Source: a virus
Taxonomy: Duplodnaviria > Heunggongvirae > Uroviricota > Caudoviricetes
Direction: 5' to 3' (one strand)
IMG/VR virus record: IMGVR_UViG_2737471992_000006
Length of the DNA stretch: 45,327 nucleotides
Shown: positions 1 to 34,105 of the stretch, one piece after another
Layout of the letters: every line of letters starts with the position of its first letter
Position numbering within the stretch: position 1 is the stretch's first letter
The notes under the pieces: model-generated
Database searches by the model: none
What the model was told of the DNA's origin: nothing
Seen by the model: the letters and a program-made list of their open reading frames with translations, nothing else
Translations under genes and position numbers: made by a program

Positions 1-1038
1 TTAACGCTTATCCGCCACCAGTTTGAGCGCGTGTTCCAGCACATTAATGTCTGCACCCGCTTTATGGGCATTTTCACTTAAATAACGTCGCCACTGCCGC
101 GCGCCAGGAATACCCTGGAACAAGCCCAGCATATGCCGGGTAATATGGCCGAGATACGTCCCCTGGCTGAGTTCACGCTCAATGTACGGATACATGGCGC
201 GCACTACCGCCACCGGATCGGCATCGGTATCCGAGGAACCAAAAATCTCTCGGTCTACCGCCGCCAGAATCCCCGGATTCTGATACGCCTCGCGCCCGAC
301 CATCACGCCATCCATATGTTGCAAATGCGCTTTAGCTTCTTCCAGCGACTTGATACCACCGTTAATCGACATCGTCAGATGCGGAAAGTCACGCTTCAGT
401 TGATACACACGCGGATAATCGAGCGGCGGGATCTCACGGTTTTCTTTCGGACTTAACCCAGAAAGCCAGGCTTTACGTGCGTGGATGATGAACATCTCAC
501 ACTCACCTTTGCCGGAAACGGTGTTGATGAAATCGCAGAGAAATTCATAGCTGTCCTGATCATCGATGCCAATACGCGTTTTCACCGTCACCGGAATCGA
601 CACCACATCGCGCATCGCTTTCACGCAGTCGGCAACCAGCTGCGCATTACCCATCAGACACGCACCAAACATGCCGTTCTGCACCCGGTCAGACGGGCAG
701 CCGACATTCAGGTTGATCTCATCATATCCGCGCGCTTCTGCCAGCTTCGCACACTGTGCCAGCGCCGCCGGATCGCTACCCCCGAGTTGCAACGCTACCG
801 GATGTTCTTCTTCACTGTACGCCAGGTAATCACCTTTACCGTGAATAATCGCCCCTGTGGTCACCATTTCGGTATACAGCAACGTATTGCGGGAAAGCAG
901 ACGCAGGAAATAACGGCAATGTCTGTCCGTCCAGTCAAGCATAGGAGCAATGCTAAACCGAGAATTCCAGTAAACACCATTTTTTTCAGGCATCACGCTG
1001 GTTTGATTAATTTTTTGTGTTTCATGATTATCGTGCAT
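1..1038 (-). CDS. dusA: tRNA-dihydrouridine synthase A (DusA)
   Basis: 345-aa ORF with the TIM-barrel Dus signature and full-length resemblance to E. coli DusA; ATG at 1038..1036, TAA at 3..1. Confidence 0.9.
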
Positions 1039-2941: not shown

Positions 2942-3220
2942 TTAAAACCACTCCCTGAGCGGGCGCTCTGGTGTAACCACCCACTCACGGAACACGGAAT
3001 CATCAAATCCATCGTCAAGAAGACGGATATTAACAAAGTACCCTTCGTTTCGCGTGTATTCTGGTTCTCCGTCATCAGGAACATCTGTCTCCCTGAACGT
3101 AAAACCAATCTCATCAACCAGAACGGCATTCTGCAGCTCTTCGTCCTCTTCCCAGTTAAGTTTCCTGAGAAATGCCCTGAAATCTGCTTTATCACTGAAA
3201 CGCAACGTGAAATCTCTCAC
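2942..3220 (-). CDS. hypothetical acidic protein translationally coupled to stf (possible fibre chaperone or accessory protein)
   Basis: 92 aa; GTG start at 3220 overlaps the stf TGA (GTGA); it sits where lambda has tfa but does not resemble lambda Tfa. Confidence 0.45.
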   Translation of the reverse strand: MRDFTLRFSDKADFRAFLRKLNWEEDEELQNAVLVDEIGFTFRETDVPDDGEPEYTRNEGYFVNIRLLDDGFDDSVFREWVVTPERPLREWF

Positions 3221-5283
3221 TCCACAACCTCCCCAAGCTGCGCATCTGTTAGCTCTTTATGCCAGAGACGAAAATTCCTCACATGCCCAAATAAATGGCG
3301 TAATCCTGCTGTAGTTTGTCCACCAATGCGAATGGTTGCTGTACTCCGGATATATTCCCATTTGGTTTTAGTTTCGCTGCTTAACTTACCGTTACTGACT
3401 ACACATGTGGACCGTTCGGACTTTACCCGCATACCAATAAGCATTTTTTCCAGCCCGGCATTTTCATTTATTCGTCGGTCTGAACCACCTATATCGCAAT
3501 ACGGAAAACCGTCGTACCCACCTGATGAACCAAACCCCATTACGATCCCCGCTCCGGTTTGATGACCGCCGGTATCAAAAACACGCGGCGCTACATTTGG
3601 CGTTTTATACCAGTTCTTATGTACCTCACAAAGAACCGTAAAAGGAAGATTATAAAGGTTATTCTTGATTGGGACTGTCACCATATCGCTTGCCCGCGTT
3701 GCCGGTGTCGTCCCCGTAACAATAAAAGATGATGTGCCTGTACCAGCCTCAATCTGTGGAGTGGTTACATCGAGATAATCCCCTGATGCAACCATCTGCC
3801 CTGTATCCGGAGAATACTGGACAAAACCACCAACCGTATTTTCTGTTGTATCTGCTTTTAATGTAGCCTCAAAAAATATCCAGCCAGTTGCATCATCCTT
3901 AACAGACCTTGCTGTAACACGGCTTGTCTGACCTGTCTTGCTAATTATGCGGGTGGTAAGGTTCAGGTTTGCTGCTCCTATTGATGTCCTTACCTCCCCA
4001 TCATAATGTTCAAATAAAATACGAACGGCGATATTATCAACTTCACTTTTTACCCGACAGGATATAGTTACATGCTTTTCGTCCCCTGAAGTATCAACCC
4101 CTCCGGTACTCGAATACAGTCCGATAATGGTATGCGCTTTACTTGTACCAACAATCGAATCCTGTACGACAAACCGGCCATAATTAAACCCGAAACTATC
4201 TGTGCCTGTTTCTGTAACGTCCAGTGAAGTTGACTTATTCCACTTCGAAGGGTCTGTACTGTTCTGGAAGAAGTTCGTTCTTTGTCCCTCAATAAGCAGG
4301 CCATCACACTCAAATCGCGGCTCATTAATTTCCGCCGTTTTCAGTTCGCCAGATTTGTTGATATATGTTGCCGTTGATGCGCGACTGAAATTAACCTGTT
4401 TATCACTGGCAACCTGAACCACATTATCACCAATCTTCACTTTTTTATAACCCGGAGAATAGCCCGTAATCATATCCAGCGAATCATTAAAGGGTATCCA
4501 CACATCCGGCAGCGGCTGTAAAACATATCTGTACGGCTCTGCTGTCTGGTTTGCGTATTCTCTGGCAGCATCTTCACTTGCTTTTGCTGCCGTCTGGCTT
4601 GCTGCCGATGCTTTCGCCGAGTTCGCCGCCGCTGTTTCGCTCACCTTTGCGTTGGCTTCACTGTCTTTGGCATTCGTCTCACTGGTTTTCGCTGCCGTCT
4701 GGCTGGATTTTGCGTTTTTTTCGCTGGCCTTTGTGGCTGTCTCGCTATTTTTCGCGCTGGTTTCTGATTTTTTGGCTGCTGTCGCGGAGTTTGCCGATGC
4801 AGTCTGCGAGGCCGCTGCCGCCTGTGCGCTGTTAGCTGCATTCGTTTCTGAGGTTTTCGCCGCATTCTTCGATGAGGCTGCTGCCGTTTCGGATTTCTTT
4901 GCCGCCGCTGCACTCTGTGATGACGCTCCGGCATGACGTGCCACTTCATTCACCATCAGCTCAAAACGGCGCAGTGCCTCCGGACGGGCATCATCCTCCG
5001 TCATGGCACCGAGAAAATCATTCAGCGTACCTGGTCTGGAACCTTCATAGACGGTAATGGTCCCGGCATGTGAAGGTGGAAAACCTTCAACCAGCAGGGT
5101 GACGCTGTACTGACCATGCTCAACATCCATGCTGTAACGCCCGGCTTCATCCGGATTTTCAGAGGCCACCGTGTTCACCAGTACCGTGGTGCTGTTACGC
5201 TTTGCCTTCAGTTGAATAGTGCAGTTCTGTATTGGTTTTCCCGCACCATCTTTCAGCACACCTGAGATTTTTACTGCTGCCAT
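3217..5283 (-). CDS. stf: side tail fibre protein (lambda Stf-like N-terminus, divergent C-terminal receptor-binding region)
   Basis: N-terminal ~120 aa closely resemble lambda Stf (MAAVKISGVLKDG...TITVYEGSRPGTLNDFL); ATG at 5283 preceded by GGAG; central Ala/Ser/Thr/Lys repeats; C-terminus resembles a lectin/LamG-like jelly-roll (my reading). Confidence 0.85.
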   Translation of the reverse strand: MAAVKISGVLKDGAGKPIQNCTIQLKAKRNSTTVLVNTVASENPDEAGRYSMDVEHGQYSVTLLVEGFPPSHAGTITVYEGSRPGTLNDFLGAMTEDDARPEALRRFELMVNEVARHAGASSQSAAAAKKSETAAASSKNAAKTSETNAANSAQAAAASQTASANSATAAKKSETSAKNSETATKASEKNAKSSQTAAKTSETNAKDSEANAKVSETAAANSAKASAASQTAAKASEDAAREYANQTAEPYRYVLQPLPDVWIPFNDSLDMITGYSPGYKKVKIGDNVVQVASDKQVNFSRASTATYINKSGELKTAEINEPRFECDGLLIEGQRTNFFQNSTDPSKWNKSTSLDVTETGTDSFGFNYGRFVVQDSIVGTSKAHTIIGLYSSTGGVDTSGDEKHVTISCRVKSEVDNIAVRILFEHYDGEVRTSIGAANLNLTTRIISKTGQTSRVTARSVKDDATGWIFFEATLKADTTENTVGGFVQYSPDTGQMVASGDYLDVTTPQIEAGTGTSSFIVTGTTPATRASDMVTVPIKNNLYNLPFTVLCEVHKNWYKTPNVAPRVFDTGGHQTGAGIVMGFGSSGGYDGFPYCDIGGSDRRINENAGLEKMLIGMRVKSERSTCVVSNGKLSSETKTKWEYIRSTATIRIGGQTTAGLRHLFGHVRNFRLWHKELTDAQLGEVVE
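4560..4950. repeat. in-frame tandem repeats encoding the KxSExxAxxS shaft of Stf
   Basis: Reiterated gc-rich units produce long spurious ORFs in all other frames here. Confidence 0.6.
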
Positions 5284-5347
5284 ATCCACTCCACAAAAAA
5301 GCCCGCCTGAACCGGCGGGCTGTCATAACACTGTGTTACCTGGCTAA

Positions 5348-5947
5348 TCAGAACTTATAACCGACACCCACGATGAAACCGTCAGCGCGCCAGTCGCCAC
5401 TGCCGGAGCCTTCATAAGCAATATCAATGGCCACGGATTCGGTCGGGTTAAACTGCACGCCAGCCCCCCACGCCAGAGACGTGTTGCTGTGGCGATCGTC
5501 ATCACTTCCGGTCAGCACGTCGTGCGTTTTCCCCTTGTTGTCAGTTACGCGGAGATAATCCCCGGAGAACGTCGAAACACGGCTGTAAGCCACACCAGCC
5601 ATCGCATACGCGCTGAACCATTCATTCACGCGCACAGACGGCCCCGCCATTACGCTGAACCAGCGGTTACGCACGGAATCTTCATGCCAGCGGGTATCGC
5701 TGTAGTGCGTTTTTTTCTCATCTTCAGCATTGGCATAACTGAAGGACGTAATCAGCCCCAGCGTGTCCGTAAACTCATAACGGTATTTCACGTTAATCCC
5801 GTTCAGATTATCGCTGCCGGGAGCGTTCGTACGGGCATGAAGATACCCTGTGCTCAGTGTGGACTGATGTTCAGACGCCCATGCAGGCGCACCGGATACG
5901 GACAGACAGATGGCTGCGGACAAAATGGCTGCACAAACTTTACGCAT
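5348..5947 (-). CDS. lom: Lom outer-membrane protein (Ail/Lom family)
   Basis: 199 aa, near-identical in pattern to lambda Lom (signal peptide, ...GFIVGVGYKF end). Confidence 0.9.
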   Translation of the reverse strand: MRKVCAAILSAAICLSVSGAPAWASEHQSTLSTGYLHARTNAPGSDNLNGINVKYRYEFTDTLGLITSFSYANAEDEKKTHYSDTRWHEDSVRNRWFSVMAGPSVRVNEWFSAYAMAGVAYSRVSTFSGDYLRVTDNKGKTHDVLTGSDDDRHSNTSLAWGAGVQFNPTESVAIDIAYEGSGSGDWRADGFIVGVGYKF

Positions 5948-6014: not shown

Positions 6015-9000
6015 TCAGCTAATCGTGATGCCTGCAGTGGCTTTCTTCATCACAACAACCAGCAAATCGCTGATACTTGCTGTGGGATACCAGCCATTTA
6101 CCCACCATGCTGATACAGAAAACTCCAGCGTCATGTGGCCGCGACCAGCAGGCATATCAATAACACCACTGTAAACCAGCGTATTATCCAGCGCGGTACG
6201 GTTATAAATTTCAGCACCGTTTTTCTTCACTATCAGGCGGCATGACGAATAAGTATCGCTGTTCTCCTGCTCATGTCTGGCACCGCTGAAAGCCACCGCC
6301 GGAATAACAATCTGCCGGTTAAACGGCTGATCGTCATAAACCCTGACGGTAATGGTTCCTGATGGCCAACGCTTCGGTGCACGGGAGTCACGAGGGAAAG
6401 CCTTACCCACTGTTTTAACGAGATCGCCTTCAATCTGGTTTGCAGACAGTTTCCCTCTGATGACACAGTTCTCGTTAATGGTGACATTATTGAGCGTGCC
6501 GGTATTCGCCGTGATGGCTCCACTGATATCCGCATTGCGGGCTGTCAGCCTGCCATCCGGCGTCAGGGAAAACGTAGGAGGATTGCCGGATGACGTGATG
6601 CTCACCGCAAACAGTCGCTTCAGGAACACGTCGTTCATGAACAGCTGATTCCCCTGCGCCACAAACAGCGGCGTGGTGTTGCCGTTCTCCGGGGTAATCA
6701 TCGCGATACGGTCCGCCTGCAGCAGAATACTGCTCAGCGTCTGACCATCAACATCCTCAATCCCCGCGCCAATCCCGGCCACATAGGGAATACCGTTTTT
6801 TGTTTTCTGCACCTTCAGCATATACATGGCATTCAGCTCATTGCGCGTGTCTGACTGAACCCGCTGGATTTGCTGTATGGTCACGGCCTGGTCACCCAGC
6901 TTTTTATCCGTGGTCGAGGTAATTTCACTCCCTTTTTTATCCACGTACTGGCGGACCTGTGCTATCTGTCGGGCGTTTTCTGACTGCCCCTGGCTGACAG
7001 TCTGTGAGATTTCACTGCTCACCCGGTCCACTTTCTGGCTCACCTGCGCGATGGCCAGTGTCTGGTCCTCATTCTTTTTCGCAACCAGCTGCGTGAGGCT
7101 GTTTTCCGCCTTCCCGATTTTCCGGGTCACTTCTGCGATATCCGTGTCCATCCGCTGACGGATATCTTCTTCCAGTTGCGTGACCTCCGTACGCAGCGCT
7201 GAAGCATCAATGCGCTCTTTCAGTGCCTGGCCCAGAAGCGTCTCATCTATCAGCCCCCGGAAAATTTCCAGATACCCTTCACCATCATTGCTGGGCTGCC
7301 CGCTGGCTTCCACAAAAGCAGATTTTCCCACCAGGTTGACGCTTCGCACGTAAAACCAGAAATCCGTCCCCGGCTTAATCCGGCTCCCCTGGACAGTCCA
7401 CTGACTGCCGGTCCCCAGATAACGGGCAGATTTTTCCACCTGTGCTGTGTTCGTGATGCGTTTTTCTGAGAACCAGAATTCAAACTGTACCGTCGGGTCA
7501 TACACCGCAAGACGCGGGACCGCCGTTATCTGAAAATACCCCGGCGTCAGCTCAATGGTGGCGGGTTTTGCAGGTGCGTTAATCCGGAACGATACCGACG
7601 CCGGATCGCCCTGCTGTCCCCGGGCATTTACCGCCCGGACCGTCAGCGTGTAACGCCCCAGCGCCAGCTGCCTGAAGCGGTAAGTGGTTTCCGCCGTCCG
7701 GGCCGTGCTGACCAGCCGCTCACTGCCGTCATCCGCTGTTACGGTCAGACGGAGCAGGAAGCTCACGCCCTTCACCACCTTCGGCGTGTCCCAGCGCGCC
7801 AGCACCTGATATTCCCCGCTGTCTGCGGTAACTTCGGCGGTCAGGTGCTGCACCGCTGGCGGCGTGACACCATTCACCGTGCCGCTCTGGTCGCCGTCAA
7901 AGTGCGCCCCGTTATCCACGATGGCCTCTTTTGCCGGTACATGCTGCACGGCGGTGATGGCATGCGTACCGTCGTCATTCTCACGGATACTCACACAGCG
8001 GAACAGGCGCTGGCGCAGCGTCGGCAGCTTCAGCCCCCACACGCTGTATCCGGCAACGCCGTCAGGAACACGGCTCACTTTCACCTTCACACCGTCGGTG
8101 ACGGACTGGACCTCCACGCTGACCGGATTCCCACTTCCGTCAACCAGGCTTATCAGCGTGGTGCCGGAGGATGACAGCATGATTTCACGGTCGAGCGTCA
8201 GCGTCCGGGTCTGGCTGTTCACCGCCAGCACGCGACCACCGGTGCTGATACCGGCATAGTCATCATCACAGATTTCAATGACATCGCCCGGCACATGGCG
8301 AAGCCCTTCAGCACCCACGCTGAAGTCCACGGTCTGCGTTTCCAGCAGCTCTGTTTTAATCAGCCACAGCCCGGCGCGGTGTGCCTGCCCCCGGCTGGTA
8401 CAGCCAAAGGCATCCATCTTCGTGACATTACGACCGTAACGGGCAATGGCCCGCGTGTCCTCCACAAGCTCTGTCGCCGTCTCCCAGCCGTTATCCGGAT
8501 CAATCCAGTTCACCTCAACGGCATTATGACGGTCCTTCAGGGCGCTGAAGCTGTAGCGGAACGGCGCGCCATCATCCGGCATCACCACATTACTGCGGTT
8601 ATAGGTCCACACCTTATCCGACGGTCGGTCCTGCACGAACGTCAGCGTCTGCCCGTTCCATACCGGCATACAGCGCATCGCCGAGCAGAAATCACTGAGC
8701 ACATCCCACGCCTTGCGCTGTGTGGTCAGGTAAGCGTTACAGGTGATGCGCGGCTCCGTGCCACCAAAGCCATCCGGCACTGACTGGTCGCAGTACTGGC
8801 CGATGACATACAGCGCCCATTTATCCACATCCGCCGCACCAAGACGTTTCCCCATGCCGTAGCGCGGGTGGGTCAGCATATCCCACAGACACCATGCCAT
8901 GTTGTTGCTGTATGCTGGCTTAAACGTTCCGTCCCAGATACCGCTGTATTGCCGCGTCTGCGGGTTATAGTTCGACGGCACCTGCAGAATGCGCCCGCGA

Positions 9001-9713
9001 AGATGATAATTACGGCTCACCTGCTGGCTGCCGAACTGCTCCGAGTCCACCTGCACGCCGACCAGTGCCGTGTTCGGGTAGCACTGTTTCACATCGATGA
9101 TTTCGGTGTATGACGACCAGAGCGTTTTGTTCTGCAGCTGGTCTGTGGTGCTGTCCGGCGTCATCCTGCGCATCCGGATATTAAACGGGCGCGGCGGCAG
9201 GTTACCCACCACCACCGAGGCCAGATACTGCGAGGTGGTTTTGCCCTTAATGGTGATGTCTTTTTCCGTCACCCAGCCACCGTTACGCTGTATCTGAACC
9301 AGCAGGCGGACTTCCGACGGATTCCTGTCACCCTTTGAGGTGGTTTCCACCAGTGCCTGCACGCCGAAAGTAAAACGCAGTCGGTCAATGTTTGCCGACG
9401 TGATGGCCCGGGTGATCGGCGTGTCATATTTCACTTCCGTACCCAGCACCGTCTCGGAGCCGGAGGATTCAAATCCCTCCGGCGGAGTCTGCTCCTGCTC
9501 ACCTGCCCGGAACACCACCGTGACACCGGAGATGTTGGTATTCCCCTCAGTGTCCAGCACCGGCGTACTGTTCAGCAGCACGCTTTTTAATCCATCCACC
9601 GGACCTTCAATCGGCCCTTCACTGATGGCATCAATCACACTCAGCAACTGCGTAGATTTCAGGTTGTCCTTCGCTTCGCGCGGGGTATGCCCCTTACTGC
9701 TGCCTTTACCCAT
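6015..9713 (-). CDS. J: host-specificity / central tail fibre protein J
   Basis: 1232 aa, collinear with lambda gpJ from [15 protein letters not shown] through the C-terminal receptor-binding region. Confidence 0.9.
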
Positions 9714-26606: not shown

Positions 26607-27136
26607 TGATCTATCCCCCAACAGGCTAATGCGCTTTCCTGGTCACGACGAATAACTTGCCCATAGCAGTTATTTGAACGTATGCGGCAATCGCGCCCAC
26701 CATCTTTTATCCACCAGCGAATCGCCTCGCATGCACCTTTACGATCACCAGCATTCAGCCGCTTATAAAACGTCGACGGAAAACACTTACCGGGGCCAAT
26801 GTTATAGGGACAAAATGACGCGATACCCGCTTTTTGTGGCTCGGTCAGTGGTACTTTAATATTGCGCTCCACCCATGCCAGCGCCTTATCACGCTCAATG
26901 GCGTTGACCTGGTCGCATTTTTCCTTCGACAGTTTCATACCGGGAAAAACGGGTTTTCCATCCACCATCGTGGCACCCCGACAGATGGTCCAGATGCCGG
27001 ACCCATCGCGGTATGCCGTTGTGTGGTTACCTTCTTTTTCATCCAGAAACTGGTCGAGAATATCAGGCGCGGGCGCACCGACGGCAATCAGTGCCAGAAC
27101 GGCAGCCGACAGGCCGTATCTGATTTTTGCGTTCAT
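26603..27136 (-). CDS. R: SAR endolysin (T4-lysozyme-like muramidase with N-terminal signal-anchor-release domain)
   Basis: 177 aa; N-terminal weakly hydrophobic Gly/Ala-rich segment ([16 protein letters not shown]) followed by a lysozyme catalytic region, as in phage 21 and P1 endolysins. Confidence 0.85.
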
Positions 27137-27199
27137 GGATATTTATCAGGATTTATCGGTTTCTGCCCACGGACAGGTTTATCTGTTCCGGTCAGTGAC

Positions 27200-27550
27200 T
27201 TAAGGTTGTGATTCCGGAGGAGTCTTCAGAGAACCAGTAATCCTTCCCGGTAGCTTTCCTTTGTAGGTTATCCATACATTCTGCGCCTCTAAAATTACGG
27301 GGCGCTTTTCCGGCGACTGCTCATCCCCTTCACATAACCCGGCAGCGACATCCAGGAAGACCTGTCTGATGCTCCTTCTGGCCGCTGCCTCATAAAACTC
27401 CAGCGCAGCACCTTCAACACGGTCCAGCGAGATGTCCAGGTCAAAAATTTCACCGTCAAAGCGTTCTTTGTCCTGTAATGCTAAAGTTACCGTAACTTTA
27501 TTCTCAAAATTGCGGATCCCTTTCACAATCAGTTCATAGTTTTGAGTCAT
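27200..27550 (-). CDS. hypothetical soluble acidic protein inserted between holin and endolysin
   Basis: 116 aa; GGGGAG Shine-Dalgarno; the ATG lies 5 nt after the holin stop; no transmembrane segment. Confidence 0.6.
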   Translation of the reverse strand: MTQNYELIVKGIRNFENKVTVTLALQDKERFDGEIFDLDISLDRVEGAALEFYEAAARRSIRQVFLDVAAGLCEGDEQSPEKRPVILEAQNVWITYKGKLPGRITGSLKTPPESQP

Positions 27551-27554
27551 TGAA

Positions 27555-27770
27555 TTACTCTCCCCGTGCAGCCTTACGCTTGTCTTCTTTAATCTTGAAA
27601 TAAAGGTTTGTCAGATACGTCAGCAAGCCAAATACCAGACTACCCAGCACACCTATTGCCGCCCACTGTGAGGGCGTGACTTTATCGAGCAACTGTAAAA
27701 ACCAGTACCCGGCACTACCTGCTGAGGTGCCATAGGCGACACCCGTTGTTAACTTATCCATGGATTTCAT
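27555..27770 (-). CDS. S: class II pinholin (S21-like) with dual-start motif
   Basis: Near-identical in pattern to phage 21 S ([13 protein letters not shown]...[11 protein letters not shown]...NLYFKI.ED.RKAARGE); ATGs at 27770 (M-K-S-M) and 27761 give the antiholin/holin pair; GAGGTGG Shine-Dalgarno. Confidence 0.9.
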
Positions 27771-27802
27771 AACCCCACCTCGCAGATGCGGGTGCTGTGT
27801 AA

Positions 27803-27831
27803 TGGAAATAAAAAGGCCACCTGACGTGGCC
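27803..27831 (-). terminator. intrinsic terminator between the methyltransferase gene and S
   Basis: Minus strand GGCCAC-GTCAG-GTGGCC followed by TTTTTATTT. Confidence 0.6.
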
Positions 27832-27837
27832 ACCAGA

Positions 27838-28890
27838 TTATTTCCCCACCAGCTCGTTTATCTCTTTCACTGTCTGGTTAAACCGCTCTGACTCAAGCTC
27901 AACACCTAAGGCCCGACGCCCCAGCGCCATTGCTGCTTTTATTGTGGAACCGGATCCCATAAAAAAATCAGCAACCAGATCACCAGGTCGACTACTGGCA
28001 TTGATTATTTGCCTGAGCATATCCGCCGGTTTCTCACACGGATGTTTACCCGGGTAGAACTGAACGGGTTTATGCATCCAGACATCGGTATAAGGCACGG
28101 AGACTGATACGGAGAAATAGCGCCGGAGAGATTTAAACTCATCCAGCAATTCAGAATATTTGCGATTCAGTGAATCATAAGATGCCACCAGCTGGTGGTG
28201 TGGTTGTTCCAGTTGTTGTTCCTGAAACTTCTCTGCCGCTATACGGGAAAACAGTGCCTGTAACTTCCGATAGTCAGCCTCATTCGGCAACTGCCACTGA
28301 CTGGCACCAAACCAGTGGGAAACCATATTTTTCTTACCTGTGGCTTCGGCAATTTGTTTTGCCGTTATACCCAGTTCGGCACGAGCATCCCTGAAATACG
28401 ATATCAGCGGTGCCATTATGTGCTGTTTGAGTTCCCTTTCTTTTGCCGCATAGCCGTCACTTTTGCCGCGATATGGCCCCTGGTAATGTTCAGCAAACAG
28501 AACGCGCTCTGTGGCAGGAAAATATGCGCGCAGACTTTCTTTATTACACCCATTCCAACGTCCGGACGGCTTCGCCCAGATGATATGGTTAAGCACGTTG
28601 AAACGTTCACGCATCATGATCTCAATATCAGATGCCAGGCGATGCCCACAGAACAGGTAAAGGCTTCCGGCAGGTTTTAACACCCGCCAGAACTGGGCCA
28701 GACAGTGGTCCAGCCACTTAAGGTAATCTTCGTCCCCTTTCCACTGATTGTCCCAGCCGTTGGGTTTCACCTTGAAGTACGGCGGATCGGTAACAATCAG
28801 GTCAATGGAATCATCAGGCAGGGACTGAATAAAATGCAGGCAATCAGCGTTGATTAAATCAACACTGTTTATTTTTACAGTATTTTTCAT
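27838..28890 (-). CDS. orphan DNA amino-methyltransferase, beta-class (DPPY before FxGxG)
   Basis: 350 aa; motif [10 protein letters not shown] near the N-terminus and AdoMet motif FFMGSGST near the C-terminus; no restriction partner nearby; weak Shine-Dalgarno. Confidence 0.8.
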
Positions 28891-29040
28891 GGATCAGTAA
28901 GCGTAACTCTGGTAGGCTCACTCTGCTTTTGCGCTAAAGCAGTGGGCCGTGGTTCGCTTGTGACCAGTAAGCATGAGCGAATGGCTGGCAGGTGCTACCA
29001 ACACCCACCAGCCGCCCATTTTCACAGCAGGAAACCGCCA

Positions 29041-29268
29041 TTACTGGCAGCGTCTGAATTTATTCCCGTACCCGCCGTTATCCTTCGCCAGACCCGCCAG
29101 AACTAACTGAGTCAGTATTAACTGGCACCGGGCTTCGCTTACTCCGGTAGTTCTCGTCATCATGCGTGGCGTTACCCACTTGTCAGCAGGTAAGAAATGA
29201 AGGACTGCTGCGGCGGTTTCTGTCATATCTTGCTGTTTTAGCATGTCTTTTTCCCTTCTGGTTAACAT
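29041..29268 (-). CDS. small winged-helix-like protein (unknown function)
   Basis: 75 aa; helix-turn-helix-like stretch (TTGVSEARCQLILTQLVLAGLA); weak ribosome-binding site, so only moderately supported. Confidence 0.4.
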   Translation of the reverse strand: MLTRREKDMLKQQDMTETAAAVLHFLPADKWVTPRMMTRTTGVSEARCQLILTQLVLAGLAKDNGGYGNKFRRCQ

Positions 29269-29362
29269 GACATACCAATAACTCTTGTCTAAAAAGCCAG
29301 CAAGATAAAAAGTCAGTATTCACGACCACCAGCGTGTTTACTGTACTGCACCAGGTTTACAG

Positions 29363-29390
29363 GTACAAAAAAACCGCTCAGCGGCGGGTT
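29363..29390 (-). terminator. intrinsic terminator (tR' candidate)
   Basis: Minus strand AACCCGCCGCTGAGCGG hairpin followed by TTTTTTT. Confidence 0.5.
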
Positions 29391-29421
29391 TAAGTTGTGT
29401 GGCGAAGTAACCACTCTTAAC

Positions 29422-29450
29422 AGCATATTTGATTTTTTACGATTGTAAAC
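29422..29450 (-). promoter_or_regulatory. candidate late promoter PR' (TTTACA -35, 16-nt spacer, TATGCT -10)
   Basis: Sigma70-like hexamers on the minus strand between Q and the 29363 terminator; purely sequence-based. Confidence 0.2.
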
Positions 29451-29452
29451 GG

Positions 29453-29480
29453 TTGATTATTCATCTCCAATAAAAATAAT
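29453..29480 (+). promoter_or_regulatory. promoter of the lipoprotein moron (TTGATT -35, 16 nt, AATAAT -10)
   Basis: Hexamers ~35 nt upstream of the lipoprotein ATG. Confidence 0.35.
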
Positions 29481-29514
29481 TGTGTGGGTATGCCCTTAAC
29501 AATGGATAAGAAAC

Positions 29515-29961
29515 ATGAATAAAATGACTGTATTATTACTTAGCGCAACTATCATTTCAGGTTGTACTTCTTCCGTACCATTGATAAAGAAAACTCAATC
29601 AGGAAAACCTGAGGGGGTTTATCAAAATACGACAAAAGATAAAGTCAAAGATGCCCTTGTGAATTACTGCAATAGTAGAGGGTTGATAATTTACAACGCG
29701 GATAACAGCAGTGTTATATGTGGTAAAGAACTGGAAGGCGGGTCTGCTGTTTTTGGACAAATGTTAATCGGCAATGCCTATTCAACAACCCCGGTATCAA
29801 AAGTCAAATTTACTATCGCTCAAGTTAATAACGATACAAAAGTGTGGGCCGATATGTGGATGGAAACTCAAATGGCAATGGGGCAAGTACAACAAATGGC
29901 TATAACAGACAACGCAAGCAAAAACACTATCCAACAACGTCTTGATGAATTAAAACCTTAA
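29515..29961 (+). CDS. lipoprotein moron (signal peptide + lipobox ISGC), unknown function
   Basis: 148 aa, AT-rich codon usage, opposite strand to all flanking phage genes, with its own promoter and a downstream hairpin. Confidence 0.75.
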   Translation: MNKMTVLLLSATIISGCTSSVPLIKKTQSGKPEGVYQNTTKDKVKDALVNYCNSRGLIIYNADNSSVICGKELEGGSAVFGQMLIGNAYSTTPVSKVKFTIAQVNNDTKVWADMWMETQMAMGQVQQMAITDNASKNTIQQRLDELKP

Positions 29962-29982
29962 GTAAATTAATTAAATAAAATG

Positions 29983-30004
29983 GGGAGAATAAATCGACTC
30001 CCCA
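29983..30004. terminator. bidirectional hairpin between the lipoprotein gene and Q
   Basis: GGGGAG-N10-CTCCCC; the T-rich run is on the minus-strand side (after Q), weaker on the plus side. Confidence 0.4.
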
Positions 30005-30045
30005 CACATTAAACTGATTCAATTACCCCCTTAATAAGAGGTCTT

Positions 30046-30411
30046 CTAACGATCCATCTCTAGCTCAATTTCTAACATCATTAACATGCCATCAACTACA
30101 CCTTCAGCCTTTTGCAATAAACGCCCAACCCAGCAATCAGAACGCCCATGTTTACGGGCAAGCGCCATAAACGTCATACCACCTACATAATAATCCACTA
30201 ATAAATCGTGCAAATCGCTGTTGTTCTTTTTCAGGCGAGCCATGCATCCACAAATGATCATCGCGTCATCGTCACAACATTGCGGGCGGGATTTTACTTT
30301 TGAAGGGATTAGTCCTTTAAATCCTGCAGCAATAGACGACCAAGTGACATCCTCGTGATTATTTGCCACCCATGCCCCCCAACGTTCAAGAACCATTTGA
30401 ATATCACGCAT
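30046..30411 (-). CDS. Q: late-gene antiterminator Q (phage 21/82-type small Q)
   Basis: 121 aa from the ATG at 30411 (GGAG Shine-Dalgarno); [14 protein letters not shown]...CGCMARLKK pattern of Q21-family antiterminators. Confidence 0.8.
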
Positions 30412-30428
30412 CAACTTTCTCCACAAAA

Positions 30429-31424
30429 TCAGGCCAGCACGCCAATTGCCAGCGCACGATCGATAAAACGAAATATCAGCTCCAGCTGGGAGCCATACTT
30501 CTCTTCAAATGCCACGGTATCCGCATGCAGCTCGTCGTGATGCTTTCTGCACAAAGGCAACACAAAAAGGTCATGCGCTTTTGTTCCCATTCCACCCTGA
30601 CCGTGACCTATCAGGTGGTGGGGATCATCAGCAGGCTTTCCACAACATGCACACGGCTGTGTCTTAACCCAGCGCGTGTACTTTTCATTAACCCAGCGGC
30701 GGCGTTTTGGGCGTAACATAAAAGACTCCGGCGACTCCGGATCCACTTTCAGCGCCAGCACCTTTTTTGCCTTATCCTGGATGATGCTGGTGGCAGGAAC
30801 CGAAGGCACAAGGTCACTTTCCCGGGTGACAGACGGCACAACAGGCTTTGGTAATCTCAGTGCCTTACGGGCTGCACTTTCCGGTAAGGCATCCGCCAGG
30901 TCATTACGAATCAGCCACCAGCACAGTTCCGGCATTGTCACAACGTGACTATCATCAAAACCGAGATCCCGACGCACAACAGACAACACCCAGCGGGCAC
31001 AGTTATCCGTTGCCATTGATTCCAGCCGTTCCGTGAACTGATCGCGCAGCTGGTTATCGCAGTGCCAGCACAGACGGATTGCGCCCGGAGCGTGTCGCAT
31101 TGTGGTCATGTTCTCGCTGTGCCAGTCGGAATGAGGCCACTGGCAGCCTTTTTCACGAAGTAACCAGCTTTCAAGACATTCCACGCCACCAGCACGACGG
31201 ATCACTGCCTCATTGCGGAACACGGCCCGAACGGCAGGATCATCCGCCAGCGGTTGTGATGCCGCCGGAACGGCACCACTGGCGAAAGATGAATAACGTT
31301 CCGGCTCAGGCTCCAGCAGAACACGCCCCTGCATAAACAGGGGCATCAGCTCTGAACCTGGCCTGAACAATACGATCCCCATACGCGGGGCAATTTCAGG
31401 GGTCAGTAGTGCTCTCACGGTCAC
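30429..31424 (-). CDS. DUF968-family protein with C-terminal HNH-like zinc motif
   Basis: C-terminal CACCGKP..DPHHL...[12 protein letters not shown]; usual position upstream of Q. Start uncertain (GTG at 31424 or ATG at 31382). Confidence 0.7.
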
Positions 31425-32254: not shown

Positions 32255-32644
32255 TCAGGCGGCTGCACCCGCCGTTTTCTCGTACTTACTGATGGTGATC
32301 TCGACCTTCCCTTTCGGGATAACCGGTCCCCACTCCACCAGCATTCTTTTCACCTGTCTGTCGTCTTCCCACACACCCGCGTGGGTCAACGCGTCAAACA
32401 GCGCCTTGTTATAGTTGTCCAGATCGCGGATCCGGTTATCCGGAGGAAACAACACGATCTCCACTGCAGCAGGTGCCGACGTTGGTTTTGGCAGACGACG
32501 TAACTGCTCAACTATTGCTGCGCACGCCGCGCTCTGAAATTTTCGCCCCGCCGCGCTTATCAGGCTCTTACCAGCAAATGCCCCTTTGTTGGGGTGTCGC
32601 CAGTACGTGTTCACGCTGGGCGGGAAAGGCAGGATCAGCTTCAT
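32255..32644 (-). CDS. rusA: RusA-family Holliday-junction resolvase
   Basis: 129 aa; LPFPPSVNTYWRH ... RDLDNYNKALFDALT pattern. Confidence 0.85.
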   Translation of the reverse strand: MKLILPFPPSVNTYWRHPNKGAFAGKSLISAAGRKFQSAACAAIVEQLRRLPKPTSAPAAVEIVLFPPDNRIRDLDNYNKALFDALTHAGVWEDDRQVKRMLVEWGPVIPKGKVEITISKYEKTAGAAA

Positions 32645-32967
32645 ACTTTCAGGCCTCTCTCATGTAACCAGTGGGCTGCACGCAGCCTGGCGTTTTCCTC
32701 ACCGGCAAGCAGTGAGCGGATAATCCCGACCGCCTCGCTGTCGTCGTCCTTCACCGCGGTATGAAGCGTGATACCCCGGGCCACGCCACGCTTTATCGTG
32801 ATGACGCCTTTTTTCTCCAGTGCGCGAAGATGTTCCACCGCTGCATTCACTGAACGGTATCCCAGCATGGTTGCCACCTCCTGATTGGTTGGCGGGAAGC
32901 CACGTTCTTTCTGGTAAGAAATCAGCATATCCAGCACCTGCTGCTGGCATTGAGTTAACGTCGTCAT
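32641..32967 (-). CDS. LexA N-terminal DNA-binding-domain homologue lacking the S24 peptidase domain
   Basis: 108 aa; strong resemblance to the LexA N-terminal domain (QQ.VLD.I......GFPPT..E.A..LG.RS.NAA.EHL.AL..KGVI.I..G.ARGI.L); no Ser/Lys dyad region. Confidence 0.7.
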   Translation of the reverse strand: MTTLTQCQQQVLDMLISYQKERGFPPTNQEVATMLGYRSVNAAVEHLRALEKKGVITIKRGVARGITLHTAVKDDDSEAVGIIRSLLAGEENARLRAAHWLHERGLKV

Positions 32968-33617
32968 GCCGCCATCTCCCTGACCAGTTTTTCCGCCTGC
33001 TGGCGAACCTGCGCCAGAAACGCCTCACCACATGCCTCAAGTTCATCACGCCCGATGTAGCTGATTGCCGGTCCCTTCCAGGTCTTGTCGAAAACAGCAA
33101 TAGCACCAGCGAAGAAAGCGCCTGTCGGCACCTGCTTCTCGTCCTTCGGTATAAACCAGGCAGGCAGTTCAAAACCAATACGCCCGCGAATAAAAGCAAT
33201 ATGATCTGCATCTTCCGGCCACCACACTTCGCTGGTGGCCGCTTTGATCAGGAAAACATAGCGCCCGCCCTTATCACGCATGGCACTGGCATGTTTCATG
33301 ATGTAACGCATGCCGGTGATGTATTGCCCCTCATGCTGACTGGCGCGGCTGTATGGGGGATTACCAAAGGCAGCACCTTTAAGCTCCGCAAGACGTTCTG
33401 ACCAGTCATGCGCCAGCGCGTTATCTTCCGCCGTGTAATACGCGGCACATTTGGCGTTATCACCGTCAGTAAACAGATCCAGAACAAACGGGCCAAACAG
33501 GGTGTTAATTCCCCAGAAAATGTTGTCCGGCGTGCGCCACTGATCGCCCACTTCCTTCAGTTCATGGGCTGGTTTGTTCCGCAGTTCCACCAGCGCCTGG
33601 CAATATTTATTACTCAT
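32964..33617 (-). CDS. phage Dam-type N6-adenine DNA methyltransferase (NPPY)
   Basis: 217 aa from the ATG at 33617; motif AFGNPPYS. Confidence 0.75.
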   Translation of the reverse strand: MSNKYCQALVELRNKPAHELKEVGDQWRTPDNIFWGINTLFGPFVLDLFTDGDNAKCAAYYTAEDNALAHDWSERLAELKGAAFGNPPYSRASQHEGQYITGMRYIMKHASAMRDKGGRYVFLIKAATSEVWWPEDADHIAFIRGRIGFELPAWFIPKDEKQVPTGAFFAGAIAVFDKTWKGPAISYIGRDELEACGEAFLAQVRQQAEKLVREMAA

Positions 33618-34105
33618 TAAGCCCCCACGTAATTCCCTGAGAGATACCACTCTTCACCTGATGCAGCCCGCTTACTGCTTTTCCGTAAACACCGTTCACG
33701 ACGCGCCAGAAAATTGTTTCGTTCTGGCTGGGAGTGGCTTTCACGGAATGCCGCCATCCACACGGTTGCAGCACGACGGTATAAGCCCCTGGACTCCAGT
33801 TCTTCAGCCTGGCGGGTCAGGCACAAAATCACCCGTGGATCGTTAGTGCCGACATAGAAATTGCGCACAGGTCTGGTTTCTCGAACTGGTTGTGGTTCCG
33901 GTTCCTGCGCTCTCTCAGTCAGGCGTGGGAAATGTCTGCGTGTATCTCCTTCACAACGGTGAGCCACACGCCCACTCTGACGTAACTTGCTTGCTGACTG
34001 CAGAACGCGCTGCCGTGAGTAACCTGCAAAAGCATCCGCAATGTCTCCGGAAGTACACCCCGGATGGGCTTCAATGAATTTCTGAACTTCATTCAAAAGA
34101 CTCAT
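33617..34105 (-). CDS. PerC-like transcriptional activator candidate
   Basis: 162 aa; C-terminal LESRGLYRRAATVWMAAF resembles the PerC/Pch motif as I recall it; provisional. Confidence 0.4.
   Translation of the reverse strand: MSLLNEVQKFIEAHPGCTSGDIADAFAGYSRQRVLQSASKLRQSGRVAHRCEGDTRRHFPRLTERAQEPEPQPVRETRPVRNFYVGTNDPRVILCLTRQAEELESRGLYRRAATVWMAAFRESHSQPERNNFLARRERCLRKSSKRAASGEEWYLSGNYVGA

Follow-up and report, generated by a model that had tools for sequence, protein, structure and literature searches.

A reverse-facing lipoprotein gene between the antiterminator gene Q and a candidate late promoter in a lambdoid Escherichia coli prophage

Introduction

Where does late transcription begin in a lambdoid prophage that carries a cargo gene, facing the other way, directly behind its antiterminator gene Q? 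The question is raised by the virus record IMGVR_UViG_2737471992_000006, a stretch of 45,327 nt (the window) that contains a complete lambdoid E. coli prophage with its late genes on the minus strand. Read in the phage direction, the region comprises a DUF968 gene, Q, a hairpin with a T-run, an opposite-strand open reading frame (ORF) of 148 residues that encodes a lipoprotein, a second hairpin followed by seven T, an ORF of 67-75 residues, a gene for a 350-residue N6_N4 methyltransferase, another hairpin with a T-run, and the lysis genes (S21-type holin, DUF1327, lysozyme, Rz/Rz1).

An initial annotation had correctly placed Q, the lipoprotein, winged-helix and methyltransferase genes and two minus-strand hairpins with T-runs. 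It had also concluded that late transcription must pass antisense through the lipoprotein gene, because it took the late promoter PR' to lie directly behind Q, where lambda and phage 21 have it. That conclusion is not supported by comparison with related loci, since the block that covaries with Q lies downstream of the cargo in 97 of 97 cases. We consider it probable that the lipoprotein gene is a self-contained moron in a reverse-facing slot between a QuuD-like Q and its cognate late promoter, that the late start lies beyond the cargo and, as a working guess, that the product acts at the envelope against phage.

Results and Discussion

A block covarying with Q lies beyond the cargo

The 84 nt between the stop codons of Q and of the lipoprotein gene (29962-30045) contain hairpins only. 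A promoter scan found no promoter-like site on the phage strand of this segment, and neither a Q-class motif nor a TAnnCT hexamer is present in it. Beyond the lipoprotein gene, from 29450 to 29366 in the phage direction, stands the block GTTTACAATCGTAAAAAATCAAA-TATGCT-GTTAAGAGTGGTTACTTCGCCACACAACTTAA-ACCCGCCGCTGAGCGG-TTTTTTT. It shows the phage 21 order of parts, with TATGCT at the position of the sigma-dependent pause element (SDPE). The Q-type motif at its head, whose parts here are GTTTAC and CGTAAAAA, occurs exactly once in the window. Of the parts expected of a PR', a motif covarying with Q class, a TAnnCT hexamer and a hairpin with a T-run are present, and a clear 8-bp direct repeat was not seen; the leader lies 622-625 bp from Q and not immediately adjacent to it. 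K-12 DLP12 has the same block, there beyond the nmpC porin gene, which is the reverse-facing cargo of that prophage.

When viral contigs were scanned for exact matches to 21 nt of the leader, at least 120 loci were obtained. A Q gene was located upstream in 97 of the loci that were oriented, a number that includes the window and four other records. The motif upstream of the hexamer tracks the class of Q across the 97 loci, in three classes. QuuD-like Q proteins (>80% amino-acid identity) are accompanied by GTTTACnnnCGTAAAAAA, i.e. GTTTAC(A/G)nnCGTAAAAAA, cdtI-like Q proteins by CGCGGTCCGCAAA and a third Q type by CGCGTACGCAAAA. The hexamer is always TAnnCT and is common to all classes, its distance from CGY is constant at 14 nt, and the remainder of the leader is near-identical in loci of all three. 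Since the same Q/motif pair is found with several different cargos, and cargo varies independently of Q class, the covariation is not a matter of linkage alone.

The gap between Q and the motif ranges from 523 to 3022 bp in the 97 loci and is never closed. Its mean G+C content (GC) is 0.39, and its longest ORF lies on the opposite strand in 96 loci. A hairpin directly follows the Q stop codon in nearly all representative loci, and the segment after the stop is wholly different between loci of the same Q class that bear different cargo. Of 43 unique leader variants, 37 are followed by a hairpin with a T-run, the stem sequence of which varies. Because the Q-covarying motif, the hexamer, the leader and the terminator sit downstream of the cargo in every one of the 97 loci, PR', the Q-binding site and tR' most likely lie there too, with a late start at ~29415-29428 that would be directed away from the lipoprotein gene.

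Two further observations concern the leader and the tR' candidate. Its 34 nt, CTGTTAAGAGTGGTTACTTCGCCACACA(A/G)CTTAA, stay near-invariant across the three Q classes while the motif upstream changes, and in the window (29390-29423, minus strand) they can fold into a small GTGG-N8-CCAC hairpin. In a DLP12 subclade (L010, L013, L016, L030, L045, L089, L122) the stem of tR' reads GAGCTGG instead of GAGCGGG and the predicted hairpin is lost.

Two readings of the TATGCT hexamer

The comparison with phage 21 rests on the annotated record OL657228. In this record a -35 element is followed by the Q-binding element (QBE), the -10 element, the transcription start site, an SDPE TAAGCT(G) at +2..+8 and a terminator complete by +50. 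The QBE, ATTGAGCA/AATGAGCA, lies between the -35 and -10 elements, and the -35 begins seven nt after the Q stop codon. In a structural study of Q21 (10.1101/651190), the protein was loaded on a template that kept only positions -40..-1 of PR'21 plus an SDPE, which places the QBE inside the promoter.

By analogy, the favoured reading of TATGCT in the window is a sigma-dependent pause element with a weak A-rich -10 just upstream; the constant spacing and the resemblance to phage 21 speak for it. The open alternative is that TATGCT would itself be the -10, with TTTACA (29449-29444) 16 nt upstream. Both readings give the same answer on antisense passage. Another promoter model, TGGAGA-16-TACAAT (29469 to 29442), was rejected as its -10 is not kept in K-12 DLP12, which has TACGTA there. 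A coding sequence annotated in PhiR40_1 for a product of 37 residues (L001 4414-4527, equivalent to window 29313-29426) overlies the leader and tR' and is probably spurious.

Hairpins around the cargo

A scan of the region returned 11 terminator-like sites, against 3.1 expected from shuffles. We take the hairpin behind Q to be the point at which the Q (early-right) transcript terminates; it would also insulate the 3' end of the cargo. Of the two minus-strand hairpins that flank the cargo, the lower is best read as the tR' of a short PR' leader and the upper as the end of the Q transcript. A terminator is annotated in phage Ayreon at the position of the tR' candidate, and another at the site equivalent to 27815-27831. 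The winged-helix and methyltransferase genes thus form a pair bracketed by terminators within the late operon.

Beside the lipoprotein stop codon (29975-30045) the hairpin carries its T-run on the phage strand only. For this reason transcripts of the lipoprotein gene may run on into Q as antisense RNA, an arrangement that resembles the paQ of lambda and of phage 21, in whose record OL657228 paQ is annotated.

The lipoprotein gene has the traits of a moron

The lipoprotein begins with MNKMTVLLLSATIISGC, in which a basic n-region (MNK) and a hydrophobic stretch (MTVLLLSATI) precede the lipobox ISG|C. A signal peptide is therefore combined with a match to the pattern [LVI][ASTVI][GAS]C. Cys17 is invariant in 18 homologues, and the family consensus of the lipobox is LSGC. 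The residue that follows Cys is Thr in the window and Ala in the family consensus; as it is not Asp, sorting to the outer membrane by Lol is predicted. Comparison with homologues from other genera gave saturated synonymous sites and non-synonymous distances of 0.08-0.40, with dN/dS of 0.07-0.23 where computable. The ORF is therefore a real coding gene under purifying selection.

GC falls to 0.32-0.41 over 29400-30100, compared with ~0.50 in the flanks. Homology to K-12 DLP12 and to another of the loci (L033) begins at GTTTAC (29450) and disappears directly after the Q stop codon. The same Q/PR' module bears a porin gene, the window lipoprotein gene, another lipoprotein gene or other genes, and the deviating composition recurs in homologues elsewhere (GC 0.39-0.44 vs 0.50-0.58). 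This agrees with the initial annotation, which had described a moron block between Q and the lysis genes; the AT-rich lipoprotein gene is present at this position in some related phages and absent in others. The same annotation had endowed the gene with a promoter and a hairpin of its own. A promoter-like site is indeed found upstream of the ATG, back-to-back with the candidate PR' block, and a hairpin adjoins the gene (29982-30005); this hairpin, however, has no U-tract on the sense strand. We regard the gene as a self-contained mobile moron, and its promoter as a candidate. The coordinates of all features are collected in Table 1.

Table 1. Positions of the genes and candidate control elements in the window.
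Feature	Position	Strand	Remarks
Q-type-specific motif GTTTACAATCGTAAAAA, candidate Q-binding element in PR' core	29434..29450	-	covaries with Q class
TATGCT hexamer (pattern TAnnCT)	29422..29427	-	likeness to phage 21 TAAGCT; scan TTTACA-16-TATGCT
Near-invariant PR' leader CTGTTAAGAGTGGTTACTTCGCCACACAACTTAA	29390..29423	-	first 21 nt exact in at least 120 viral contigs
Candidate tR': short GC stem CCGC-N-GCGG, then TTTTTTT	29366..29385 (stem 29385 to 29373)	-	-7.1 kcal/mol, z = -1.3
Post-Q hairpin GGGGAG-N10-CTCCCC, then ATTTTATTT	29975..30003 (stem 30003 to 29984)	-	-13 kcal/mol, z = -3.1
Hairpin and T-run between methyltransferase stop and S21-type holin start	27815..27831	-	z = -3.2
Lipoprotein gene, 148 residues, phrog_3152	29515..29961	+	lipobox ISG|C, Thr at +2
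Sigma-70 promoter-like site TTGATT-16-AATAAT upstream of lipoprotein ATG	29453..29480	+	9/12 consensus positions; consensus match only
AT-rich cargo cassette (moron) in slot between Q and candidate PR'	29451..30045	.	GC, loss of homology
Antiterminator gene Q, Q21 family, QuuD-like subgroup	30046..30426 (PGAP start 30411)	-	PF06530 Phage_antitermQ
Small winged-helix protein gene, 67 residues (PGAP) or 75 from ATG 29268	29041..29244/29268	-	first gene after candidate tR'
Beta-class N6/N4 DNA methyltransferase gene, 350 residues	27838..28890	-	PF01555, E = 2e-42
S21-type holin gene	27555-27770	-	Pfam

Proposed course of transcription

In the arrangement that we propose, Q would be followed in the phage direction by a hairpin terminator, the cargo pointing toward Q, the cargo promoter back-to-back with PR', the Q-binding motif with its pause- or -10-like hexamer, a conserved leader of 50-60 nt, tR', the winged-helix gene, the methyltransferase gene and the lysis genes. 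In the lysogen, the candidate cargo promoter would drive the lipoprotein gene, and PR' may fire constitutively with its transcripts ending at tR'. On induction, the early-right transcript would produce Q and stop at the post-Q hairpin. Q would then load at the motif and hexamer and carry polymerase through tR' and the hairpin at 27831 to 27815, and this read-through would express the winged-helix protein and the methyltransferase, as passengers of the late operon, together with the lysis genes. The lipoprotein gene would be transcribed alone, most likely in the lysogen, and shielded on both sides.

Several points weigh against this proposal. The pause-element model puts the -35 in variable cargo DNA, where the match is poor, and the -10 model needs 16, 18 or 19 nt to the TTnACG block in the three Q classes. 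We infer the PR' start from the sequence, and its placement comes with both models of the hexamer, as pause element or as -10. The stem of the tR' candidate is weak in the window (z = -1.3). The covariation of motif and Q could partly be linkage within one inherited module, and a leaky post-Q hairpin may let early transcription cross the lipoprotein gene antisense. As for the envelope part of the proposal, the lipoprotein has no match in PADLOC or in annotated PHROGs or Pfam families that would indicate its function. Moreover, the J proteins of four carrier prophages are ~30% identical and have unrelated C-terminal receptor-binding ends, a pattern that ties the lipoprotein to no single receptor and does not favour exclusion by a Cor-like protein matched to its receptor.

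The leaky hairpin is the basis of an alternative that we hold to be unlikely. Polymerase derived from PR would pass the post-Q hairpin on induction and collide with transcription of the lipoprotein gene, which would be active in the lysogen and weakened during lytic growth. The lipoprotein gene and Q are convergent, their stop codons only 84 nt apart, and the two units may overlap because no U-tract accompanies the hairpin on the sense strand of the lipoprotein gene; the reverse orientation of the cargo in 96 of the 97 loci would also fit selection for separating cargo expression from lytic transcription. However, the phage-strand hairpin with its T-run is a good intrinsic terminator (z = -3.1), and in a limited test no N-like antiterminator was recognised among the ORFs left of the repressor gene. 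That PR' abuts Q, so that on induction late transcription modified by Q crosses the lipoprotein gene antisense and shuts it off, with both hairpins as successive late terminators, is a highly improbable reading: the phage 21 PR' does start seven nt after Q and the T-runs of both hairpins do lie on the phage strand, but the 29962-30045 segment is devoid of promoter-like site, Q-class motif and TAnnCT hexamer, its equivalents differ wholly among loci of one Q class with different cargo, and motif, hexamer, leader and terminator are all downstream of the cargo in the 97 loci.

If the late start indeed lies beyond the cargo, predictions of Q-dependence change: expression of the winged-helix protein and of the methyltransferase would depend on Q, that of the lipoprotein would not. 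In a common class of E. coli prophages, to which DLP12 belongs, annotation should not take it for granted that PR' abuts Q. A useful by-product of the comparison is the regular presence of a reverse-facing cargo bay between a QuuD-type Q gene and its probable late promoter. This extends the long-known lc/nmpC case and does not overturn current understanding.

Possible function of the lipoprotein

The product is predicted to be a lipoprotein of the outer membrane, from a broad family of envelope domains that have a helix-grip fold. An envelope role is supported by the lipobox, by a fold like that of BamC and Flpp3, and by relatives fused to PDZ and BamD-like TPR domains. Our best guess, a tentative one, is that the lipoprotein acts at the envelope against incoming phage (exclusion); it is suggested by the neighbours that occupy the same slot and by the position of homologues among tail genes. 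The protein may mask or modulate an outer-membrane protein, or block entry of DNA.

About equally plausible, and put forward just as tentatively, is a conversion factor for host fitness or virulence, like the serum-resistance protein Bor or a modulator of outer-membrane biogenesis. The breadth of the family is in keeping with such a role, for its 790 representatives are mostly non-phage-looking and some are fused to PDZ, BamD-like TPR or SHOCT domains; so are the resemblance of the fold to BamC domains and an occurrence that shows no link to one tail-fibre type. Conversely, no similarity to Bor/Iss was detected in Pfam, the genes found in the same slot are mostly of the porin-switch or defence type, and homologues often lie among tail genes in the contexts examined.

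A broader proposal, which we regard as rather speculative, is that QuuD-type phages keep an insulated reverse-facing cargo bay as an exchange hotspot for envelope-remodelling and anti-phage genes, and that the phrog_3152 lipoprotein is a new outer-membrane exclusion factor acting on an outer-membrane protein or on the β-barrel assembly machinery (BAM)/periplasmic quality control. Were this true, the cargo promoter and PR' would form one compact divergent control region, and cargo transcripts passing the U-less hairpin into Q would be anti-Q RNA in the lysogen, like paQ.

Searches with the lipoprotein gave no match in Pfam, NCBIfam or PADLOC (PADLOC-DB 2.0). The match in PHROGs is phrog_3152 alone, a family with no assigned function, and Foldseek against viral structures (BFVD) returned nothing significant. 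A profile search collected 790 cluster representatives (50% identity) in the lipoprotein-domain family, which shares the conserved core LIGNSYSTTP...TQMAFGQ; some remote relatives are fused to a PDZ, BamD-like TPR, SHOCT or Cys-rich C-terminal domain, and the helix-grip fold resembles the BamC and Flpp3 lipoproteins. The gene thus marks a large envelope-protein family, of ~790 representatives, that has no Pfam model.

The cassette is present in 187 of 5426 complete E. coli genomes, and the gene in only 2 of 50,697 phage records. Homologues at 50-72% identity occur in Salmonella, Jejubacter, Citrobacter, Phytobacter, Enterobacter, Xenorhabdus and Morganella. In the contexts examined, those at 60-72% identity occupy other places of lambdoid prophages, namely the H-M and K-I intervals, the stretch after J and the nin region, and one homologue has a context that is plasmid-like in appearance. 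Most copies are AT-rich with their own upstream spacer, and a strong terminator on the sense strand follows those in tail clusters, traits typical of morons.

Cargo exchanged at the slot

The commonest cargo in the 97 loci is an NmpC/Lc porin gene (66 loci); the window lipoprotein gene accounts for eight. The others include a second, unrelated lipoprotein, a PDC-S20 KAP-type NTPase, a HEC-04-like ATPase with a C5 methyltransferase, and an NsnA-like protein, and BL21 has a lipocalin gene in the same slot. PADLOC matches of cargo in other phages are to PDC-S20, HEC-04 and NsnA. The slot thus behaves as a site at which envelope and anti-phage genes are swapped, with lc/nmpC as the long-known example, and it offers a small, defined target in the search for genes of lysogenic conversion and defence. 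A literature search found no description of the Q-to-PR' slot as a hotspot; as the search was limited, one may exist.

Several cargos, single genes or pairs, have no match to any PADLOC defence model or annotated family, and these are candidate uncharacterised defence systems. In phage cdtI (L004, 3124-4512) such a cargo consists of a 313-residue protein and a 147-residue multi-pass membrane protein. Further cargos of this kind are found in L021, L126, L061 and L104, with sizes across the set of 304 + 159, 395 + 344 and 427 residues.

Comparison with known systems

The closest precedent is the lc/nmpC porin moron of phage PA-2 and DLP12/qsr'. Expression of Lc together with loss of OmpC protects PA-2 lysogens. 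The porin gene occupies the same slot, from a QuuD-type Q to essD-type lysis genes, lies on the opposite strand, is AT-rich, and has a hairpin at the Q stop codon and the same PR' motif, leader and tR' on its far side. The products differ, a 16-strand porin as opposed to the 148-residue lipoprotein of the window, whose gene has a short 3' region; the 3' untranslated region of nmpC/lc yields the regulatory RNA IpeX (PMC12197685).

Phage 21 is the type member of the Q family PF06530 (PMC9388147), to which the window Q belongs. The two phages share the order of motif, TAnnCT hexamer, short leader and terminator, as well as the S21-type holin and a signal-arrest-release (SAR)-type endolysin. They differ in that the phage 21 PR' lies 7 nt after the Q stop codon, whereas 0.6 kb of reverse-facing cargo intervenes in the window. 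The window Q has 121-126 residues versus 162 in Q21, and the window motif is unrelated to ATTGAGCA/AATGAGCA and contains no clear 8-bp direct repeat. After tR', phage 21 has tRNA genes and the window phage the winged-helix and methyltransferase genes.

In lambda, bor and lom are envelope genes for lysogenic conversion that lie within the late region. The gene bor encodes a small outer-membrane lipoprotein, is oriented against late transcription and has its own promoter; DLP12 bor is so oriented. Bor has a role in serum resistance. It is the classic precedent for the idea of a lipoprotein silenced by antisense transcription, but bor lies downstream of Rz inside the late unit, where late transcripts cross it, whereas the window gene is upstream of the candidate PR'. 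The window lipoprotein has no sequence similarity to Bor (no Pfam match).

T5 Llp, phi80/N15 Cor and HK97 gp15 are, like the window lipoprotein, small envelope proteins encoded by prophage morons. The HK97 exclusion moron gp15 lies among tail genes, and homologues of the window lipoprotein are found in tail clusters beside H, M, K, I or J; gp15 is an inner-membrane protein and not a lipoprotein. With regard to Cor and Llp, the window lipoprotein has no sequence or fold match to an annotated viral protein (Pfam, PHROGs, BFVD), and in the four carrier prophages it is not associated with one receptor-binding type of tail fibre. Finally, the defence hotspots of P2 and P4 (Rousset et al. 2022, PMC9122126) resemble the slot in their fixed position and interchangeable AT-rich cargo, including known and candidate defence genes. 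They belong to another phage group and another position, and the QuuD-type slot also holds porins and lipoproteins.

Genes around the slot

RefSeq and the deposited genome of phage PhiR40_1, at 99.1% identity, list the same gene set, with most products labelled hypothetical. Q matches PF06530 with E = 2e-51 (173 bits vs a gathering cut-off of 26) and aligns to the Q21 chains 6p18/6jnx of the PDB with E = 7e-9 over only 82 residues; the gene has ~82% nucleotide identity to K-12 quuD (DLP12). Its start, like that of the small downstream ORF, differs in the Prokaryotic Genome Annotation Pipeline (PGAP) (Table 1).

Both phage-strand genes between tR' and the lysis genes proved to be what the initial annotation had called them, a small winged-helix protein and a beta-class methyltransferase. 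The AlphaFold2 (AF2) model of the former has a predicted local distance difference test (pLDDT) score of 87 and the topology H1-b-H2-H3-b-hairpin (H9-17, H26-33, H37-49, E53-55, E63-65), i.e. a three-helix bundle followed by a beta-hairpin wing. Foldseek aligns it to the winged helices of TrmBL2, MarR and Z-alpha with template modelling (TM) scores of ~0.8, and some homologues carry the names TrmB or DprA_WH. In the methyltransferase, VTDPPYF (DPPY, motif IV) near residue 35 precedes FFMGSGST (FxGxG, motif I) near the C-terminus, and this motif order places the enzyme, a PF01555 member, in the beta class.

An Rfam scan of 27000-31000 at E <= 1 identified no RNA family. A DUF1327/YdfR gene lies between the S21-type holin and endolysin genes (27200-27550, minus strand). 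The nin region contains, on the minus strand, a LexA-like gene (32641-32967) and a second DNA methyltransferase gene of the N6-adenine type (32964-33650), so that the phage encodes two methyltransferases. The prophage is integrated adjoining dusA (1-1038, minus strand), with its integrase gene at 1127-2224. Between the central tail fibre gene J (6015-9713) and the side tail fibre gene (3217-5289), the minus-strand ORF 5348-5947 resembles a Lom/Ail outer-membrane beta-barrel, as judged by eye from its sequence, and would be a second envelope moron of the prophage.

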